This document shows, one piece after another, positions 1,653-20,422 of a stretch of DNA of 52,284 bases. Numbering within the stretch: the stretch's first letter is position 1; each line of letters opens with the position of its first letter. Both the position numbers and the translations under genes were made by a program. Below the pieces are notes generated by a model. The model saw nothing but the letters and a program-made list of their open reading frames with translations. It did not search any database and was not told where the DNA came from. The stretch is from a virus (taxonomy: Duplodnaviria; Caudoviricetes), in the IMG/VR virus record IMGVR_UViG_3300015050_001030, positions 1 to 52,284 of that record; one strand, 5' to 3'.

Positions 1653-2257
1653 AAGGTTACTCCGTACTTAGGTAGAACACGGTACAAGAACGAAGTCTCA
1701 GGCCCTTCGAACACGTCGAAGCGTGACTGATGCTGCGTTATCTTACCGATCAAACGGTTACGGAACAACAACCCCAAGTTGGTGGAGTTGATACGTTCCA
1801 ATGCACAGAAGCGATGGAAGGCAAGCTTATTAGACCGACCAGTAAAGATAGCTTCCTTTACTTCGTCGATAGAAGGGTACTCACCTTTGATGCACTTCTT
1901 CATTTCACTCGTTGCGAACCAAGTACCACGTGGTGGGGTGTTGGCGAAGCGAATGAGGTTGTGACAAAGCCCTTGCTTTTGACGACGATCAGGTGACCGT
2001 GCCATGAAGTAAGCTTTGTCTTCTATGTTGAGGTAGCCAAGTGGAAACGGCTTGTAACTGAAGGTGTCTTCAGTGTACTTGACAGTCTTAATGTGCTTGT
2101 TACCAGCACTCAAGTCGTGCAAGTGTACCGTGTTCTTGGTTCCTGCTACCGTGATGTAGTACGGCTCTTTGTCGTACATACAGATAGTACCGTCAAGACG
2201 CATGATAGTATCTTGATGGTCGTTGTACTCAAGTCCCATCTTACACAAACTCCTCAA
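1649..2257 (-). CDS. Hypothetical protein of the ligase cluster
   Basis: 202-aa ORF overlapping both neighbours. Confidence 0.8.
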   Translation of the reverse strand: MRSLCKMGLEYNDHQDTIMRLDGTICMYDKEPYYITVAGTKNTVHLHDLSAGNKHIKTVKYTEDTFSYKPFPLGYLNIEDKAYFMARSPDRRQKQGLCHNLIRFANTPPRGTWFATSEMKKCIKGEYPSIDEVKEAIFTGRSNKLAFHRFCALERINSTNLGLLFRNRLIGKITQHQSRFDVFEGPETSFLYRVLPKYGVTL

Positions 2258-3098
2258 TGGGGAACGCAGGTACGTCCTTAGTACTTATTTTGTACGAAGC
2301 TGCAAGATCCTGAACAGTGTTCTTGTACCGTCCATTGTTAGTTGCAGCCATGTACGGCATGTAGTTGTACATTTCCGCAGCCTTGCGGTAGTAAGCACTA
2401 CGCTTGTTACCTTGTTCAGCTAGCTTAGGAACGAACTTGCTTACTTCGTGCAACCAAGGCCACAAGACTGGGCGTCCAAGCCAAGCGTTGCTTAACGTAC
2501 GGTATTCAACACCGTACGGTTTCGGACGGAAAGCACCAGGCTTACCGTACATTCGCTGTCGTTTGGTATCCTTATCCCAGAACCAAGAGAACGGATACAA
2601 GAAATCATCCATCATCTTTGTAATCTGGCAACAATCCCAAACGTGGTCGGGATCTTCTACGTCAAAGCCCTTGCCCCAACCAATGTGGATGTGGCCAGCG
2701 CCAGTACGCATCGTAGTCTTATTGTCCGGCGGAGTGTTAACCTCGCCGTCCTTGTAAGCGTCAAAGTCGGGATCACACCCAAGCACCTTACTGTGGTCAG
2801 GCAAAGAGTCGAAGTAAGCTTTGTCGTACTCGACACTAGGACTGAAGTCGAAAGCGAATTCCTTAGGAACCATCTTTCTTACGTTGTTAAGAGTGCTTTT
2901 AATATTGGTGACAAAACCGAGCTTAGTAAGTGCGGGTCGGATATTAAACTCAACAGCCGTTCCATCAAGTTGCACAGCGCCTTTGGGCAACTGGTAAGGA
3001 GCAACTTTAGTACCAGGGACAATACCCACAGCAGCGATGTTAACACCTTTAGCGTCCTTCAGAAAGAATTCAGGGTCTGCACCCACTGTAACACGCAT
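2241..3098 (-). CDS. phiEco32-like COOH-NH2 ligase type 2
   Basis: Motifs GADPEFFL, DGTAVEFN, GCDPDFDAY, RTGAGHIHIG and KPYGVEYRTLSNAW. Confidence 0.88.
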   Translation of the reverse strand: MRVTVGADPEFFLKDAKGVNIAAVGIVPGTKVAPYQLPKGAVQLDGTAVEFNIRPALTKLGFVTNIKSTLNNVRKMVPKEFAFDFSPSVEYDKAYFDSLPDHSKVLGCDPDFDAYKDGEVNTPPDNKTTMRTGAGHIHIGWGKGFDVEDPDHVWDCCQITKMMDDFLYPFSWFWDKDTKRQRMYGKPGAFRPKPYGVEYRTLSNAWLGRPVLWPWLHEVSKFVPKLAEQGNKRSAYYRKAAEMYNYMPYMAATNNGRYKNTVQDLAASYKISTKDVPAFPIEEFV

Positions 3099-3099
3099 A

Positions 3100-4269
3100 T
3101 TACACCTTGTTATTGTTTACGAAGTACCTGTACTTTTGTTCAATCACCATGTCCTTGTGCTTGGTCATGTAGATGCCTTCGTACAGCTTCTTACCGTACC
3201 CAACAACTTCACGTACAAGATCATGTTTAGTGCAATTGTCACAGACGCAATCATCTTCTGTGTACCACCAAACCTTGTCTGTGAACTTAAGGCTGTTGGT
3301 ACAGTGAGCACACCCAGCGTCAAGGATTACCTTTACGCGATTGATGGGTATGATCTTGTAAGAGAAGCCACGGTAGGCTTCCATCTCTTTTGCCGACGCT
3401 AGGTATTCCTCTGTCCGACGCTGAGCCATCTCCGCTGCCCGTTCCTTTAGCGTCTTTCCCGTTGCTGCTGGAGCGGGTGGAGGTCCCATTACCGTGGGCT
3501 TGACGTCGGGAACGAAAGGGATACGGCTACCAGTGTACGGAGTGTGATGATACACTCGAACTGGAGGCTTGATGTCGAACTCTTCAGGTTCAAGCCCGTC
3601 AAGTTCGTATTTGTAATGGACGTACTCCTTAAGCAGGATGGGATTGCCCATCTTAGCTCCCCACTCAGCTTCTTCAGCCATGTGGTTAAGGATTGCGTCC
3701 GTACTAGCCCAGTACAAGGTGTTTTGCGAGTGATCAAGCATGATCCACAACGGACGACGGTCGTTACGAGCCATATTGAACGACCCGTCGCGACGATCAG
3801 TCCAAGTAAGGGCAAACGCACCGTGTTCAGCCTTAATAGCTGTCTGCTTGATGTCGTTCTCAGCAAGGAATTTGATCAGCTCTCGGCTATCTGTACTTTT
3901 CTTACCGTCCTTCGGATTGAAGGCATTAACAGTACCGTTATGAGCACCGACGATAGGGCCTTCCCAATACGGGTGAGCGTTCTCGTGATTAATATCCCCA
4001 ATAGTAGCACTGCGATTGTGGCCAAGTAGTAAAAACTTACTTCCAGACCCGATAGCATCTTGCGTCTCTTTCTGAGTGAAGAAGTTCCAAGGACTTACGA
4101 CACCTTTACGGATTTCGTAGTTCACTTGCTTCTTCTTCTTGAATTGTCCTATGCAAACACCAGTGCTGTGCCAACCTCGGAAGGTTGAGTACACACCGAG
4201 CTTGACAAAGTTTTCACGTTCGCTCTTACCGAGGAACGTGTTGCTTTTAGCTCCAAACAAACCACACAT
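3100..4269 (-). CDS. Class II (Ntn) glutamine amidotransferase with C-terminal Cys4 Zn-finger
   Basis: Start re-called to M-C-G-L-F-G (catalytic Cys1 after Met removal; TAATG coupling). Motifs RGWHSTG, GHNRSAT, NAHPY, HNGT, TDS. C-terminal CAHC…CDNC. Confidence 0.9.
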   Translation of the reverse strand: MCGLFGAKSNTFLGKSERENFVKLGVYSTFRGWHSTGVCIGQFKKKKQVNYEIRKGVVSPWNFFTQKETQDAIGSGSKFLLLGHNRSATIGDINHENAHPYWEGPIVGAHNGTVNAFNPKDGKKSTDSRELIKFLAENDIKQTAIKAEHGAFALTWTDRRDGSFNMARNDRRPLWIMLDHSQNTLYWASTDAILNHMAEEAEWGAKMGNPILLKEYVHYKYELDGLEPEEFDIKPPVRVYHHTPYTGSRIPFVPDVKPTVMGPPPAPAATGKTLKERAAEMAQRRTEEYLASAKEMEAYRGFSYKIIPINRVKVILDAGCAHCTNSLKFTDKVWWYTEDDCVCDNCTKHDLVREVVGYGKKLYEGIYMTKHKDMVIEQKYRYFVNNNKV

Positions 4270-4430
4270 TACGCATTCTCTCCTAGAGAAATGACATCGA
4301 TACAAACATCCTTATTGTGGTCTTCCACATAGATGCTCGCTATCTCATGCCAATAGTTACCGTCATGTGCAACAACTTCCTTATCAGGAGGAAATTCTTG
4401 CAAAACTTTAATCAACTCTGCTACTGTCAT
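4269..4430 (-). CDS. Small hypothetical protein (53 aa, MTVAELIKVLQEFPPDKEV…); not in the ORF track
   Basis: Manual translation. Its stop overlaps the start of the GATase. Confidence 0.75.
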   Translation of the reverse strand: MTVAELIKVLQEFPPDKEVVAHDGNYWHEIASIYVEDHNKDVCIDVISLGENA

Positions 4431-4431
4431 T

Positions 4432-4827
4432 TTAGATCATTCCTTTAAGGTAGGCCCAAAGCTTAAGTGCGACTTCGGGATTATCACGGATAAGGCCGAG
4501 CGCCGAGTTACAATTTCTACACAGTAGGCCTCTGACTCGACCAACGGCGTGATCGTGATCAACGACAAGTTTTCCTTCTTCACCGCACGTAAGGCATCTA
4601 TTGTCTTGGGCTCTCCTGAGGTAAACAAGTTCACCAGGGCGAAGTCCAAATTTGCGCTGAGCTTCAACGTCATACCTTCGGGCGGCAACTCCGTCCTTCT
4701 TGGTGTAGTCTCCCCACCGCTTACGATGGCAGGCTTTGCACCAGGCTTGTCTTCCATCTGCACTGTGGCTATCCTTATAAAACTCGCTGAGTTCTTTGTC
4801 TACACGACACTTTTGACAATTCTTCAA
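4432..4827 (-). CDS. Endonuclease VII-family (His-Me finger) free-standing endonuclease
   Basis: N-terminal CxxC…CxxC, plus CLTC…LVVDHDH…GRVRGLLCRNCNSALG. Confidence 0.88.
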   Translation of the reverse strand: MKNCQKCRVDKELSEFYKDSHSADGRQAWCKACHRKRWGDYTKKDGVAARRYDVEAQRKFGLRPGELVYLRRAQDNRCLTCGEEGKLVVDHDHAVGRVRGLLCRNCNSALGLIRDNPEVALKLWAYLKGMI

Positions 4828-6688: not shown

Positions 6689-6976
6689 TTATGCTACCTT
6701 ACGTCCATTGGGGTTTGACGGGACTACGGTATAAGCCTGAATGGATATACCTTCGGGGGTGTTGGTAAAGCTCCAGAAATATCGGTTAGCCTCAAGCTTA
6801 AGGTACTTGGGGATTAACTCGTAACGCCGATTATGCCACCATTCACCAAAGCCTGGAGTGTTAAAGTCCCAGATCCAAGCACCGAATTTGAACAACGTCA
6901 TTGTCTTATATCTCCATGTATGTATGGCAAAGGCAAACCTCCTTAGGATTGGAGCCCTAAGGAGGTACAAGTTCAC
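6689..6976 (-). CDS. Hypothetical protein, aromatic-rich
   Basis: GTGA overlap with the upstream gene. Confidence 0.65.
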   Translation of the reverse strand: MNLYLLRAPILRRFAFAIHTWRYKTMTLFKFGAWIWDFNTPGFGEWWHNRRYELIPKYLKLEANRYFWSFTNTPEGISIQAYTVVPSNPNGRKVA

Positions 6977-7260
6977 CGCCAGAAGAAAAGCCAGGACCAG
7001 AAGCCCTTGCTCTTTACTTTCTTTGGAACCAACTCAATCTTATCGTCTGCAAATACTGGAAACTCAATAACCTCGCCTCGATTAGATCCCTCAAGGCTTT
7101 CAGCTTTCAGCACTACAATGTGACTGGCCTTGCCAATGATACCAGGACGTTTGTGGTCGTAGGTATCAGTGATCTTAGCCTTACCGTCTTTAAGGAAGAC
7201 CTTATCGCCGGTGTTAAGTTGGCGGGCAAACTTAGTCTTTGCCGTTGCCATTATACGCAT
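6973..7260 (-). CDS. KOW/SH3-like protein resembling EF-P/eIF5A domain I, with amphipathic C-terminal tail
   Basis: ARQLNTGDKVFLKDG…HKRPGIIGKA…GEVIEFPVFADDKIE compared with the EF-P consensus ANDLRKGMTIELDG…HVKPGKGQA…GRVIEKTFRSGDKVE. RBS GAAAGG. The ORF is solid; the fold is inferred. Confidence 0.55.
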   Translation of the reverse strand: MRIMATAKTKFARQLNTGDKVFLKDGKAKITDTYDHKRPGIIGKASHIVVLKAESLEGSNRGEVIEFPVFADDKIELVPKKVKSKGFWSWLFFWR

Positions 7261-7261
7261 T

Positions 7262-7553
7262 ACCTTTCAAGTGAATTCGTATGAACTTGATCGTTTTGCG
7301 GTAGGTATCGAACCTACACAGCGGAACTTTTCACGGTTCCAAAGTATCCCGTGTTCATACGTCAGTACTGTGACGACCAAAAAGGTGAGGCTCACCGCCT
7401 CGGTTTTCAGACTCCGCCACGGAGATGTGTGCGACCATCCAGGATGGGCAGGGATCGAACCTGCATGTTCATCGCTTGTCACCAGTACAGCTTACCATGG
7501 GTCCCCTTGCTGTGGGCAGCTAAGAAGATGCTGGGTGTCTGCATCCGAAGTGA
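7262..7553 (-). ncRNA. Structured RNA with two tRNA-like T-arms
   Basis: GCAGG-TTCGATC-CCTGC (7448-7464) and GTAGG-TTCGATA-CCTAC (7301-7317). Each lies inside a closed multibranch domain (stems 7365-7374/7478-7488 and 7278-7286/7353-7361). Confidence 0.6.
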
Positions 7554-7787
7554 TCATTTACGACGCCGCTTACCTGCGGCTACACGTCTCATTTTAGTAT
7601 GCATCCGAGGTTTCTCAACCTCTTCAACGTCCGCATTGCGTACTAGTTCCGATAGATCTAATATCTTGCGGGCATAGCACAAACCTTGATAGTAGCGTCT
7701 CAACCATACAGCAAGAAACGCATTCAGCACTATAGACAGTACCAATGAAGTACAGACAATGCTGGTGACTACTGCCATTTGTTCCAT
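7554..7787 (-). CDS. Single-pass membrane protein with basic tail
   Basis: N-terminal hydrophobic helix and C-terminal KRRRK; RBS GAGG. Confidence 0.7.
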   Translation of the reverse strand: MEQMAVVTSIVCTSLVLSIVLNAFLAVWLRRYYQGLCYARKILDLSELVRNADVEEVEKPRMHTKMRRVAAGKRRRK

Positions 7788-8136: not shown

Positions 8137-8430
8137 TTAAGGCACGGGCATGTGAATGTAACCACCTTCACGATGGATACAGATTGGAGGGTCAACTCGC
8201 CAGAGCTGTCCTCCCTGAGACTCACACACCACCTTGTTTTGCTCGGCTAGCGTCGACATGGGGTTGATACGGTGCATGAGTCCTAGGCAGCACACCACTA
8301 GGAAGGCGACTCCAACTCCTGCAAACATGGCTTTGAGACAAAGGGAAATACTACCTTTCCGCTTTCCGGACCTGTGACCAGGGACAGTTTGACTGCGCCA
8401 TCTGGACATTGCGTCGTCGGTACTAAACAT
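8137..8430 (-). CDS. Membrane protein (one TM helix, C-terminal Cys pair)
   Basis: Start re-called to MFSTDD after a GGAG RBS. TM segment AMFAGVGVAFLVVCCLGL. Confidence 0.65.
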   Translation of the reverse strand: MFSTDDAMSRWRSQTVPGHRSGKRKGSISLCLKAMFAGVGVAFLVVCCLGLMHRINPMSTLAEQNKVVCESQGGQLWRVDPPICIHREGGYIHMPVP

Positions 8431-8439
8431 TTGCATTCT

Positions 8440-8608
8440 CCGTTTAAAATTCTGATAGAAAATCCCGAGCTTGAGTGACAAGCCGGAAATGCACACGTAC
8501 ACATACGAAACTCCAATGAGTAAGGGGTAGGCACCCACGCACGGATACCTACCCCTTTGACGACACCGTAAGGGTCAAGACTACTGCGAAGTAGCTGCCG
8601 GTGCCGGA
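8440..8608 (-). ncRNA. Structured intergenic leader with a 16-bp hairpin (possible RNase III site)
   Basis: Hairpin 8522-8557. Its imperfect positions are all G-U pairs on the minus strand. Confidence 0.45.
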
Positions 8609-16343: not shown

Positions 16344-17897
16344 ATGGTCCAAGATAAGAAGGATCTCATTCGGCGACAAGCTGAATCCGACCTAGAGTTC
16401 TTCATCAAGCTTATAACTCCCAACAGGCTGTTAGGCCAGGTACACAAGGATCTCATTCGGTGGTGGACAAGGCCAGAAGCAAAAAGTCACCAGCTCGTTC
16501 TGCTTCCTCGCGACCATCAGAAGAGCGCTATGATTGCGTATCGAGTCGCATGGGAGATTACTCGGAATCCCGCTATTCGCGTGCTCTACATCAGCAGTAC
16601 AGCGAACTTGGCGGAGAAGCAGTTGAAGTTCATCAAAGATCTTCTATCCTCCGACGTATACAGATTCTACTGGCCGGAGATGGTGAATCTTGAAGAGTCG
16701 AAACGAGAGAAGTGGACCGGTGCTGAAATCTCTGTCGACCACCCTAAGAGAAAAGCTGAGTTCATCCGTGACCCCACGGTATTCACTGCAGGACTTACTA
16801 CTGGTATTGTTGGTATGCACTGCGACATCGCTGTTATGGATGACGTGGTTGTCGGGGAGAACGCATACGATGAACCAGGCAGAGATAAGGTTCGTACCCA
16901 AGCAAGCTACCTTGCAAGTATTGCCGGAACAGATTCGTCTGTGTGGGCCGTCGGAACCAGGTACCACCCAAAGGACTTGTATCACGATTTTGCGAACCAA
17001 ATCGTAGAGATCTGGGGAGATGAAGGCGAAATCGAACAGTCTTACAACTTGTGGGAAACCTTCGAAAGGCAAGTTGAAGATCGTGGCGACGGTAGTGGAA
17101 ACTTTCTATGGCCCCGTCAGAAGACCCGGGATGGAAAGTCCTCGTTTGGTTTTGACAAGAAAGAGCTAGCTAAGAAACGTGCACAGTATCATGACAAGAC
17201 CAAGTTTCGTGCTCAGTACTACAACGACCCCAACGATCTATCAACCGCTACAATCACGCCCGATATGTTCCAGTACTATGATAGGGCACATCTTCACAGA
17301 GAAGGTGGAAAGTGGTACGTTAAAGATAAGCGGCTCAATGTTTTTGCTGCTGTGGACTTCGCCTACAGTGACAAGACTGCGGCCGACTTTACAGCCATCG
17401 TGGTCATTGGAGTCGACAGTAAAAACAACATCTACATTCTCGACATTGATCGGTTCAAGACTAACAAGATGTCTGAATACTTTAATCGGATACTTCGGCT
17501 TCACGTTAAGTGGGACTTCAGAAAGATACGAGCAGAGTGTACAGCAGCTCAGCAGGTCATTGTAAAAGATCTCAAGGAATCGTACATACGACCTCACGGA
17601 CTAGCACTCGCAGTTGAAGAGTTCCGTCCTACTTTCAAAGAAGGTTCCAAAGAGGAACGTATCGAAGCTAATCTTCAGCCAAGGTACAGCAATCTTCAAG
17701 TATGGCACTTTGCAGGAGGCAACTGTAGCTTACTTGAAGAAGAACTGATAATGCAGAAGCCAGCTCACGACGACATGAAGGACTGCTTAGCAGCCTGTGT
17801 CGAGATCGCAGTTCCCCCAGCTTTCCAAAGTGGATCGATGGTAAAGGAACGAGCAGACAACAATTTCTTTCATTCACGTTTTGGAGGTGTAGGTTGA
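16344..17897 (+). CDS. terL: Terminase large subunit
   Basis: Walker A-like LPRDHQKS, Walker B IAVMDD, coupling motif GTRY, nuclease AAVDFA and HDD. Confidence 0.93.
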   Translation: MVQDKKDLIRRQAESDLEFFIKLITPNRLLGQVHKDLIRWWTRPEAKSHQLVLLPRDHQKSAMIAYRVAWEITRNPAIRVLYISSTANLAEKQLKFIKDLLSSDVYRFYWPEMVNLEESKREKWTGAEISVDHPKRKAEFIRDPTVFTAGLTTGIVGMHCDIAVMDDVVVGENAYDEPGRDKVRTQASYLASIAGTDSSVWAVGTRYHPKDLYHDFANQIVEIWGDEGEIEQSYNLWETFERQVEDRGDGSGNFLWPRQKTRDGKSSFGFDKKELAKKRAQYHDKTKFRAQYYNDPNDLSTATITPDMFQYYDRAHLHREGGKWYVKDKRLNVFAAVDFAYSDKTAADFTAIVVIGVDSKNNIYILDIDRFKTNKMSEYFNRILRLHVKWDFRKIRAECTAAQQVIVKDLKESYIRPHGLALAVEEFRPTFKEGSKEERIEANLQPRYSNLQVWHFAGGNCSLLEEELIMQKPAHDDMKDCLAACVEIAVPPAFQSGSMVKERADNNFFHSRFGGVG

Positions 17898-18393: not shown

Positions 18394-18581
18394 TGTACGA
18401 GCTTCTTATCACTGCTTGTCTAATGAACTCCTGCAAGGTGCACAAGTTCCCAGCTAGTGATATGAACACTCCGTACATGTGCATTATGAAAGGCCAGGAA
18501 GTTGCCGCAAAGGAGCTTCCTGGCTGGACTATTAAAGGCTACAAGTGCAAGTTGATTGATAAGGATGTTGCGAAGATATGA
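18393..18581 (+). CDS. Small four-Cys, possibly exported protein
   Basis: MYELLITACL…C…TPYMC…GW-x-I-x-x-Y-x-C resembles small alphaproteobacterial proteins. Confidence 0.65.
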   Translation: MYELLITACLMNSCKVHKFPASDMNTPYMCIMKGQEVAAKELPGWTIKGYKCKLIDKDVAKI

Positions 18582-20422
18582 GCGGTAAGACTTTAGAAAT
18601 CGATACAGTCCTGTCGCCCAACAAGTACGCGGTAGACATTGCCAATCAGTATTTGACGTGGGAGAACTTCCGCCAGGTCAAGATTTCCGAATGGCAGGAA
18701 GTCCAAAGGTACATCTTTGCTACCGATACTACTAAGACATCTAACTCCAAACTTCCTTGGTCAAACAAAACTACTCTGCCTAAGCTTTGCCAGATTCGAG
18801 ACAATTTATTCGCGAATTATATGTCTCGTATGTTTCCTAAAAAGAAGTGGCTACGCTGGGAAGGTGAATCCCAAGTAGACAACTCACGCGAGAAGTGCAA
18901 GGCAATTGAGTCTTACATGATGTGGGCTGTCGACCGTCCTGAGTGGTACGCCACTATGGGCAAGCTCGTCTTGGACTACATCGACTACGGCAATTGCTTT
19001 GCAATGCCTGAGTGGGTTGACAAGCGTAACGCAGCAGAGGATACAGATGAAGCTAATCCGAAGGAACAGAAAGGATACGTCGGTCCCAGTCTCGTCCGTA
19101 TCAGCCCTTTGGACATCGTGTTCAACCCGACTGCCCCGGATTTCGTTTCATCCCCTAAGATTATACGATCCATTATCACGATGGGAGAAGTCAAACAACT
19201 TGTTGACGCCCTTTCTGCTGATGAAGGTGAACAGGCTGACGCGGAAACAATTTGGACTTATATGAATGAAACACGTATGCGAATGGGTGAGTATCCGCCC
19301 GGATCAACTCATACGAAGAATCCCATCTATAACATTTCGGGATTTGATAACTACCAACATTACCTACAATCCAATTACGCTGAGATCCTTACTTTTTACG
19401 GCGACCTTTTCAACGTCGAAGAAGGTAAGCTATACAAGAATCAAATCATAAAGATTATTGACCGTGATCAGATTATCTCCCAGCGAACCAACCCTTCTTA
19501 CTTCGGGCAGTCACCTATACGTCACGTCGGTTGGCGCGTCAGGCCAGACAATCTGTGGGCTATGGGTCCGCTCGACAATTTGGTGGGCATGCAATATCGC
19601 ATCGACCATCTAGAGAACATGAAGTCTGACGTCTTCGATCTTATCGCCTTCCCGCCTATGAAGGTTAAAGGTTACGTAGAAGACTTTGACTGGGAGCCGA
19701 TGGCTCGTATTTACATTGGTGACGACGGTGACGTTGAACAAGTCCAGATGCCAGCACAAGTACTAGAAGCTGACAACCAGATTGCTCAGCTCATTGGTAT
19801 GATGGAAGAGATGGCAGGTGCACCTAAGGAAGCTATGGGATTCCGTACTCCTGGTGAAAAGACTGCATTCGAAGTACAGCGTATTGAAAATGCTGCTAAC
19901 CGTATCTTCGACAACAAGACAGCTCAGTTTGAACGTGATCTAAGCGAGCCTGCTCTCAATGACATGCTTGAACTTGGTCGTCGTAACATGAATCCTACGA
20001 CCGTAAGGATCTTTAATGATCAACTTAAGTTCACGGAGTTCCTCAATCTCACACCAGAGGATATCACGGGTGTGGGTCGTCTCAAGCCTATCGCTGCTCG
20101 GCATTTTGCAGAACAAGCTAATAAGATACAGAACATCAGTCAATTCTTTTCAAGCCCCATTGGCCAAGACCCAGCAGTTTCAACGCATCTGTCTGGTGAA
20201 GGTATCGCACGTATGATCAACGACCTTATGGAATGGGACGAGTACAAGATCTTCCTTCCGTACGTTCGTATCAGCGAAAGTGCCCAGGCACAAGGAATGG
20301 CTGCTCAGCAGCAAGAACAAACGATGATGGAACGAGATACTCCTGCAGGGTTGATGCCAGGTGACCACGATCCTGAGATGGCAATCCCACCGGAGGACAA
20401 CAGTGAAGAACCTACCGCTTAA
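18578..20422 (+). CDS. Portal protein
   Basis: 614 aa following the terminase. Motifs LPKLCQIRDNL, VRISPLDIVF, GFRTPGEKTAFEV. Confidence 0.9.
   Translation: MSGKTLEIDTVLSPNKYAVDIANQYLTWENFRQVKISEWQEVQRYIFATDTTKTSNSKLPWSNKTTLPKLCQIRDNLFANYMSRMFPKKKWLRWEGESQVDNSREKCKAIESYMMWAVDRPEWYATMGKLVLDYIDYGNCFAMPEWVDKRNAAEDTDEANPKEQKGYVGPSLVRISPLDIVFNPTAPDFVSSPKIIRSIITMGEVKQLVDALSADEGEQADAETIWTYMNETRMRMGEYPPGSTHTKNPIYNISGFDNYQHYLQSNYAEILTFYGDLFNVEEGKLYKNQIIKIIDRDQIISQRTNPSYFGQSPIRHVGWRVRPDNLWAMGPLDNLVGMQYRIDHLENMKSDVFDLIAFPPMKVKGYVEDFDWEPMARIYIGDDGDVEQVQMPAQVLEADNQIAQLIGMMEEMAGAPKEAMGFRTPGEKTAFEVQRIENAANRIFDNKTAQFERDLSEPALNDMLELGRRNMNPTTVRIFNDQLKFTEFLNLTPEDITGVGRLKPIAARHFAEQANKIQNISQFFSSPIGQDPAVSTHLSGEGIARMINDLMEWDEYKIFLPYVRISESAQAQGMAAQQQEQTMMERDTPAGLMPGDHDPEMAIPPEDNSEEPTA

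Follow-up and report, generated by a model that had tools for sequence, protein, structure and literature searches.

The P0001 gene and its family

We analysed a small gene of an uncultured phage (Duplodnaviria; Caudoviricetes) represented by the IMG/VR record IMGVR_UViG_3300015050_001030. The window, that is, the whole stretch of DNA analysed, is this complete record of 52,284 bp with its direct terminal repeats. A 95-residue open reading frame (ORF) lies on the minus strand at 6973..7260 in the ORF list with translations. A first-pass annotation made from the sequence alone had reported this ORF and quoted ARQLNTGDKVFLKDG, HKRPGIIGKA, GEVIEFPVFADDKIE and KKVKSKGFWSWLFFWR from its product, all of which are present. 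Sequence comparison shows the ORF to be a real gene. Its product, P0001, is predicted to consist of a KOW-like β-barrel of the EF-P/eIF5A domain-I type, followed by a basic linker and an aromatic tail that probably binds membranes, and may be a membrane-tethered binding module.

The likely coding sequence (6973..7251, minus strand) encodes 92 residues and ends in a TGA stop at 6975-6973. The start at 7251, the second ATG of the frame, is the more likely one because it lies 11 nt 3' of a Shine-Dalgarno-like AAAGG (7263..7267, minus strand; read from the sequence), because the product of the gene caller has 92 residues and is 100% identical to P0001, and because the N-terminus reads MxxxK in all six homologues of the family alignment. 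The upstream in-frame ATG (7258..7260, minus strand), which gives the 95-residue reading, is an improbable start, being only 2 nt from AAAGG and adding an MRI extension that occurs in no homologue. A perfect 12-bp hairpin (6937..6966, minus strand, running 6966-6937), found in a scan for terminator-like structures, begins 6 nt past the stop. Six of its 12 pairs are G-C, a weak T run follows it, and AAGGAGGT lies within its 3' arm. It is possibly a terminator, or a processing or stabilising element, closing the gene.

P0001 belongs to a family of seven proteins of 92-96 residues, whose other members are 30-75% identical to it. A word-indexed search returned one relative, and an exhaustive profile search of 1.84 billion representatives returned five proteins at E ≤ 1e-3, one of which was dropped. 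Two further profile searches closed the family at seven (7 of 317 and 7 of 2001 candidates). The dropped protein (P0006) is repetitive, has 984 residues, and matched with E 7.4e-4 and a best stretch of 25 residues; it was judged spurious and excluded from all alignments. Residues K5, K7, A9, L12, G23, A25, G55, G59, V75, P76 and K77 are invariant in the family alignment. All members are basic (net charge +5 to +10; P0001, +7). The sequence of P0001 has no N-terminal hydrophobic segment, from which we infer a cytoplasmic location. The longest contigs of the homologues measure 52.1-52.8 kb.

No member matched a family of Pfam, PHROGs or NCBIfam (best E 0.002, to SepF for one member, 0.12 and 0.075, respectively), and none of the seven matched the defence and counter-defence models of PADLOC at E ≤ 1. 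A tblastn search of 50,697 GenBank phage records with P0001 gave no match (best E 0.4). Searches of the JGI metagenome contigs scanned, with a family alignment and with P0005, found no family member, and queries with a family alignment, P0004, P0005 and P0008 found no homologue locus in viral contigs.

Predicted fold and relationship to EF-P domain I

AlphaFold2, run with the 7-row family alignment, gave a model with a mean predicted local distance difference test score (pLDDT) of 72.8 and a predicted template modelling score (pTM) of 0.53. From this model, and from Foldseek, ESM Atlas and hhalign, residues 5-76 (7024..7239, minus strand) are predicted to form a KOW-like β-barrel with strands at residues 6-8, 17-20, 23-34, 44-52, 61-67 and 71-74. 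The first-pass annotation had proposed structure prediction with Foldseek as a check on its EF-P alignment, and the best matches are specifically to EF-P/eIF5A domain I rather than to generic SH3/KOW folds. Among the matches listed from the PDB, 35 of 43 name EF-P, eIF5A/IF5A or EfpL; the other eight are ribosome entries or a 'hypothetical protein' (1yby_A), with chains of 126-176 residues, a length fitting EF-P/eIF5A factors, the identity of the chains not being given. The best match is to EF-P domain I bound to EarP (5wxk_B; E 4.6e-3, template modelling (TM) score 0.79 by target, root-mean-square deviation (rmsd) 2.4 Å over 70 columns). The single-sequence model of ESM Atlas (pTM 0.51) has as structural neighbours, among the matches listed, only EFP_N or IF5A-like_N proteins, with TM-scores by query of 0.65-0.72 (whole protein) and 0.73-0.80 (residues 1-78). 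As two different predictors agree on one fold, we assign to P0001 a predicted KOW-like barrel of the EF-P/eIF5A domain-I type.

EF-P and eIF5A are universal translation factors. With EF-P domain I (PF08207; 5wxk_B, 3oyy_A, 3a5z_B) P0001 shares the predicted six-stranded barrel and a long β3-β4 hairpin, superposing with a TM-score of 0.79 by target and an rmsd of 1.7-2.8 Å over 67-73 columns. The N-domain of archaeal and eukaryotic IF5A (PF21485) provides structural matches of equal rank (7n4d_A, 1bkb, 5gak_q, and IF5A-like_N clusters in ESM Atlas), but P0001 lacks a match to its hidden Markov model (HMM), a hypusine-type loop and the C-terminal OB domain. The BFVD matches listed comprise uncharacterised small phage proteins (rmsd mostly 3-6 Å) and six giant-virus proteins of the eIF5A type (rmsd 2.1-3.1 Å). 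The latter, among them eIF5A of Tupanvirus, Fadolivirus and Orpheovirus, resemble P0001 in these matches but are full-length factors of ~150 residues.

Many of the BFVD phage proteins are uncharacterised, 60-100 residues long and only weak matches (TM 0.45-0.6), and come from Mycobacterium, Gordonia, Klebsiella, Erwinia, Citrobacter and Aeromonas phages. Going by these models, phage genes without an assigned function may often encode small KOW/SH3-like barrels. The feature neighbours in ESM Atlas (YdfZ, KilR, DUF7205 and a cluster that is 39% KOW) score 0.78-0.84, which is chance level by calibration. Kinship with YdfZ was rejected on its background hhalign score of 11.3.

The likeness to EF-P emerged at the level of profiles. 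In hhalign, the 7-row family alignment was compared with a profile of EF-P domain I, whose 37 distinct rows came from a sample of genomes across one phylum, and scored 26.2 (probability 53%, P 1.3e-4), aligning query residues 9-73 with EF-P residues 6-63 over 58 collinear columns at 21% identity. None of 200 column shuffles reached this score (mean 11.1, s.d. 2.5, maximum 21.4), and the reversed alignment scored 10.5. Because column shuffling is a lenient null, natural β-rich controls were added, and these remained at background: L14 11.8, S17 12.2, EF-P domain II 10.4, EF-P domain III 13.0 and YdfZ 11.3. An alignment over the whole domain was given by EF-P alone.

In plain sequence the relationship is not significant. 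BLASTP of P0001 against E. coli EF-P gave E 0.15, pairing residues 6-37 with 3-33 in the register of the first-pass annotation. The EFP_N HMM (PF08207) had no match at E ≤ 10 to P0001 or five family members by hmmscan, or to any of the six frames of the whole genome, while control genomes were positive in 14 of 14 cases. IF5A-like_N (PF21485) likewise gave nothing at E ≤ 10 in the six frames or in the protein hmmscan. The likeness that had been proposed by eye is thus above chance at the profile and fold levels, with a register that agrees on both flanks of the loop, and falls short of significance in direct sequence comparison. The accompanying claim that EF-P domains II and III are absent is borne out: the ORF ends after 92 residues, and the HMMs of these OB-fold domains (PF01132 and PF09285) have no match in the genome at E ≤ 10.

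The β3-β4 hairpin loop, residues 35-43 (RPGIIGKAS; 7123..7149, minus strand), was placed from the DSSP assignment of the model, the family alignment and hhalign, and is the counterpart of the EF-P loop with the modified K34/R32. By DSSP it has nine residues, and the block of residues 31-40 has the lowest pLDDT of the barrel (69). In EF-P, the excerpts of PMC6544042 describe a β3-β4 loop of seven residues with a conserved basic tip (K or R) needed for function, and an invariant proline at -2 in EF-P of the lysine type. The first-pass annotation read the PG-K-G tip as replaced by PG-II-G, which depends on the alignment chosen. The geometry of the model puts I38/I39 at the centre of the loop, in agreement with that reading, whereas hhalign introduces a four-residue insertion (R35-I38), adopts a different register within the loop and pairs K41 with EF-P K34. 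Lysines K34 and K41 are both present in the loop region. Across the seven members the loop reads RPGIIGK, RAGVIGK, SKGVAGP, TKGLPTM, TRGLPTK, QKGSPSK and SN--LPN. G37 is kept in six of the seven, PG occurs in one, the length varies, and the centre is hydrophobic or proline.

Conservation of the PG loop among homologues, on which the first-pass annotation had staked its alignment, is therefore not seen, and the PG-II-G tip is particular to P0001. A better fit to EF-P than to generic SH3/KOW domains, its other stake, is seen in the structural matches, although the profile of the KOW protein L24 scores nearly as well (see below). P0001 is not a member of EF-P, judging from its sequence, because the EFP_N HMM is silent, there is no domain II or III, the tip is unconserved, and the β3-β4 loop is variable and, at ~9 versus 7 residues, longer. 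It further differs from EF-P domain I in having no conserved basic tip or PGKG/R motif, and from the whole factor in the addition of a basic and aromatic tail.

The basic linker and aromatic C-terminal tail

Beyond the barrel, the family alignment defines a basic linker, residues 75-82 (VPKKVKSK; 7006..7029, minus strand), in which V75, P76 and K77 are invariant in all seven members. The last ten residues, 83-92 (GFWSWLFFWR; 6976..7005, minus strand), form an aromatic tail that, from its interfacial free energy and conservation, is a putative interfacial membrane anchor. In every member a basic stretch follows V75-P76-K77 and leads into a Trp- and Phe-rich segment of 10-14 residues. Aromatics number 3-7 in the last 14 residues, versus 2-5 in the other ~80.

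Interfacial free energies were computed on the Wimley-White scale, with literature values. GFWSWLFFWR scored -8.55 kcal/mol, and a value of -8.5 is reached by only 6 of the 36,376 10-mers in the open frames of the window, in 2 of the 314 frames. In 7/7 members the 10-mer with the strongest interfacial hydrophobicity falls in the last 14 residues. Across the seven tails the best 10-mer scores between -2.4 and -8.6 kcal/mol, and the last 20 residues bear a net charge of +2 to +9. From the length of the hydrophobic stretch, the tail would be too short to span a membrane.

MinD and FtsA bind the membrane through C-terminal amphipathic helices. The phage tails resemble these targeting sequences in lying at the extreme C-terminus, in length (10-15 residues), in combining basic with large hydrophobic residues and in being net positive. 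On the interfacial scale they are equal to or stronger than the tail of FtsA in six of seven cases and that of MinD in all seven (-2.65 and -0.56 kcal/mol, respectively, from the annotated E. coli K-12 genome). They differ in being far richer in Trp and Phe, and no helix is predicted. Their helical moments are 0.07-0.49, versus 0.23-0.25 for MinD and FtsA, for a segment that is low-confidence coil in the model. The suggestion in the first-pass annotation of a membrane-targeting tail is upheld to the extent that the tail is conserved in 7/7 members and plausibly membrane-binding by sequence. We consider it probable that the linker and tail together bind membrane.

Proposed function and alternatives

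We hypothesize that P0001 is a small, basic, cytoplasmic phage protein built of three parts: a ~70-residue barrel of the KOW-like or 'translation-protein SH3-like' kind, the basic linker with its invariant V-P-K, and a Trp/Phe tail of 10-14 residues. The polybasic linker and aromatic tail would lie at the inner-leaflet interface of the cytoplasmic membrane, in the manner of the MinD and FtsA tails, and the barrel would be kept at the membrane surface by the tail and by the invariant lysines close to each terminus. The barrel would serve as a binding module, with RNA or a ribosomal component as a first guess for the ligand, which would be localised or sequestered during infection. Our favoured reading, held tentatively and at somewhat less than an even chance, is a KOW-like binding module that is tethered to the membrane and whose ligand may be RNA or ribosomes. 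RNA or the ribosome was chosen as the first guess because the fold class binds such ligands and the protein has a net charge of +7; taken by itself this part of the reading is doubtful.

Several observations weigh against this reading. The ligand is proposed purely by analogy. P0001 has no sequence-level membership in any family covered by the Pfam, PHROGs, NCBIfam, PADLOC and PDB searches; in the last of these, phmmer with P0001 and hmmsearch with a 5-row profile gave best E values of 0.27 and 0.2, with no EF-P among the matches. Against the single E. coli EF-P sequence, hhalign gave the family a probability of only 0.2%. Confidence in the models, which were built from seven sequences, is moderate; with a 2-row alignment AlphaFold2 gave an unusable model (pLDDT 43.8), and Foldseek gave no match at E ≤ 1e-3 in the PDB or BFVD. 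The tail is modelled as coil with a pLDDT of ~51-54, contains proline in two of the seven members, and in the weakest case (P0005, -2.38 kcal/mol) falls just short of FtsA.

The specificity of the EF-P likeness is limited by ribosomal protein L24, whose KOW profile (30 rows) scored 24.0 against the family in hhalign (probability 20%) over 30 columns, covering residues 7-36. EF-P domain I itself scored 23.5 against L24. Set beside the score of 26.2 for EF-P domain I, these values support a relation at the superfamily level only: the distance of the family from EF-P domain I is about that between EF-P domain I and L24. The shared feature is the N-terminal half of the phage protein, where GDKVxLxDGxAKI aligns to the KOW region of L24 (PF17136/PF00467), but P0001 has no Pfam KOW match, and neither L24 nor NusG is among the Foldseek PDB matches listed.

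The distribution of the gene is a further point against this reading. None of the 10 nearest IMG/VR records by terminase, eight of which are at least 90% complete, contains a family member, and the gene is therefore accessory. By the sequences found it is rare, yet it has been retained across considerable divergence. For now it is an accessory orphan of an uncultured phage, with no assigned function.

An equally live alternative, though in itself less likely than not, is that P0001 is a generic SH3/KOW-like adaptor with a target outside translation; it might, for instance, take part in host takeover at the membrane by binding a membrane or divisome protein. The EF-P likeness would then reflect merely a shared ancient fold. 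The location of the gene in a minus-strand block with nucleotide-metabolism and enzyme genes, and its absence from the nearest relatives, are consistent with such a role, as is the predominance of uncharacterised small phage proteins among the BFVD matches. The feature neighbours in ESM Atlas are also small phage or prophage proteins (among them the KilR cluster and the 39%-KOW cluster), though their scores of 0.79-0.84 are at chance level, and the hydrophobic or proline centre of the loop in all seven members fits a protein contact better than an RNA contact. Yet the best structural matches are consistently EF-P/eIF5A rather than other SH3-like folds, the protein is strongly basic, and the YdfZ profile is at background.

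A more specific relation to translation is improbable. P0001 could compete for the EF-P site beside the acceptor arm of the P-site tRNA and the peptidyl-transferase centre, blocking or replacing host EF-P, and would then alter the translation of proline-rich host proteins, possibly on membrane-bound ribosomes. The entire domain I aligns and superposes, the protein is basic, and it is with domain I that EF-P reaches into the peptidyl-transferase centre (PMC6544042, in excerpt). However, P0001 lacks domains II and III, which according to the same excerpts likely recognise the P-site tRNA and the E-site codon, and its loop tip is unconserved with a centre that is not basic. P0001 cannot do the job of EF-P, because it lacks these OB domains and because its loop is longer, variable and hydrophobic or proline at the centre instead of basic at the tip. 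In a bolder form, given the same low credence, P0001 would be a stand-alone, membrane-tethered descendant of EF-P/eIF5A domain I that sits in the ribosomal EF-P pocket or grips the acceptor arm of tRNA or of two tRNA-like elements upstream of its gene, and so keeps host EF-P out or draws some of the translation or RNA to the membrane. If this were true, P0001 would be the first phage factor acting by EF-P mimicry.

The first-pass annotation had interpreted P0001 as a membrane-held, non-modifiable decoy for the EF-P-modifying enzymes EpmA or EarP, or for a defence sensor that watches EF-P. The fold does resemble the part of EF-P that is bound by EarP, as in the top PDB match 5wxk_B. The loop that such enzymes target, though, differs in length and sequence among the seven homologues, and none of the features relevant to modification in the excerpted account of PMC6544042 (a seven-residue loop, P at -2, a K/R tip, positions 35 and 36) is kept. 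No PADLOC family matches, and the host, judging from the terminase relatives, may lack EpmA and EarP. With an unconserved tip, ~9 residues in place of seven and 0/7 members matched by PADLOC, we find the decoy unsupported and very improbable.

It is slightly less probable still that P0001 is a substrate or carrier for the phage's own amide-bond enzymes, with a loop or linker lysine as the acceptor, as in the β-lysylation of EF-P. Downstream on the same strand follow, in order, a Trp-rich small ORF, a 295-residue protein, a class-I amidotransferase/peptidase C26 (5126-5932), endonuclease VII in mid-cluster (4432-4827), a class-II amidotransferase (3100-4305), a COOH-NH2 ligase (2241-3098) and an amidoligase (708-1652), with phrog_11055 at 1649-2257, all on the minus strand. 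The amidoligase, the COOH-NH2 ligase and the class-II and class-I glutamine amidotransferases are thus 1-6 kb away, and P0001 is lysine-rich, with K5, K7 and K77 invariant. The hairpin and other genes, however, stand between the P0001 gene and this cluster. Amidoligase and amidotransferase are reportedly named in papers on LUZ24-like, tf-like and OM43 phages; should a comparable cluster exist in those phages, it does so without P0001, for which the 50,697 phage records gave no match. Finally, a chance open frame is barely credible: the ORF is short and has no family match, but six homologues match it in length, are 30-75% identical and share its motifs and tail, and two predictors give it a foldable model.

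Full-text literature searches gave, among the papers listed, no report of a stand-alone small phage protein resembling EF-P domain I or KOW, and in the review PMC12856214 the word 'phage' occurs only in the reference list. E. coli EF-P matches 17 of the 50,697 GenBank phage records; all but one of the 15 matches listed cover at least 96% of EF-P, and the other covers 93%. Several of these records, for example 500-kb Salmonella contigs and 3-kb records, look like host DNA or mis-binned contigs. If the barrel of P0001 binds ribosomes or tRNA, it would represent a new phage route to interference with translation; if it does not, the family would still illustrate cleanly how the fold of a translation factor can be reused in a membrane-tethered module. 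At 92 residues it is a small and tractable target for structural and localisation work.

Genomic context and upstream elements

By gene content the phage is podovirus-like. Its large terminase (16344-17897) and tail genes are on the plus strand, together with a 614-residue product (18578-20422) whose sole PHROGs match is phrog_332, 'head-tail adaptor', and whose size and position lead us to take it for the portal. DNA polymerase, primase/helicase and ribonucleotide reductase are encoded on the minus strand. The nearest terminases belong to phages of marine Rhodobacteraceae and Methylophilales, at 57-62% identity to the Celeribacter, Lentibacter and Roseobacter (SIO1, CRP) podophages and ~53% to the Methylophilales phages.

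The first-pass annotation placed the P0001 gene directly behind a double-T-arm RNA. Two perfect T-arm-like hairpins do occur on the minus strand, at 7464-7448 and 7317-7301, 147 nt apart. They contain the only two exact matches to GGTTCGATNCC in the window, 50-213 nt upstream of the gene; with one mismatch allowed there are 8, versus 2.2 expected. The motifs thus stand, but no tRNA is called there: ARAGORN at default settings and Rfam at the gathering level and at E ≤ 10 called nothing in the T-arm region, and ARAGORN with -ps80 gave poor cloverleaves at 7293-7384 and 7439-7512, one with an 8-nt anticodon loop. The 299-nt stretch folds no better than shuffles (z -1.37). A link between these elements and the P0001 protein is speculation.

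Between the two T-arm hairpins there is a terminator-like hairpin with TTTTT behind it (7401-7387). A third tRNA-like call below threshold (Leu, CAA), made by ARAGORN with -ps80 only, lies at 8297-8369 on the minus strand, inside a 133-residue ORF (8137-8538). Two DNA sequencing runs gave only contigs of 151-270 bases over 7329-7777, none of which covers the gene, and a 270-base contig from another run spans 7329-7597 with 10 differences. No RNA run is listed as containing this DNA, and these contigs bear on neither expression nor habitat.

On the far side of the T-arm region, a 77-residue ORF (7554-7787, minus strand) has, from its sequence, a hydrophobic N-terminal stretch of ~25 residues and no family match, and is likely a membrane protein. 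A sigma-70-like promoter match (7618-7591, 10/12) lies in its 3' end, facing the T-arm region and the P0001 gene.

The 295-residue protein has no relative in viral contigs. The Trp-rich small ORF immediately downstream of the P0001 gene (6689-6976, minus strand; from the ORF list) has 70-95 residues, contains FGAWIWDF and GFGEWWHNRRY, and has no Pfam or PHROGs match. Its GTG start (6976) overlaps the P0001 stop as GTGA, and an ATG near 6901, after GGAG, looks better.

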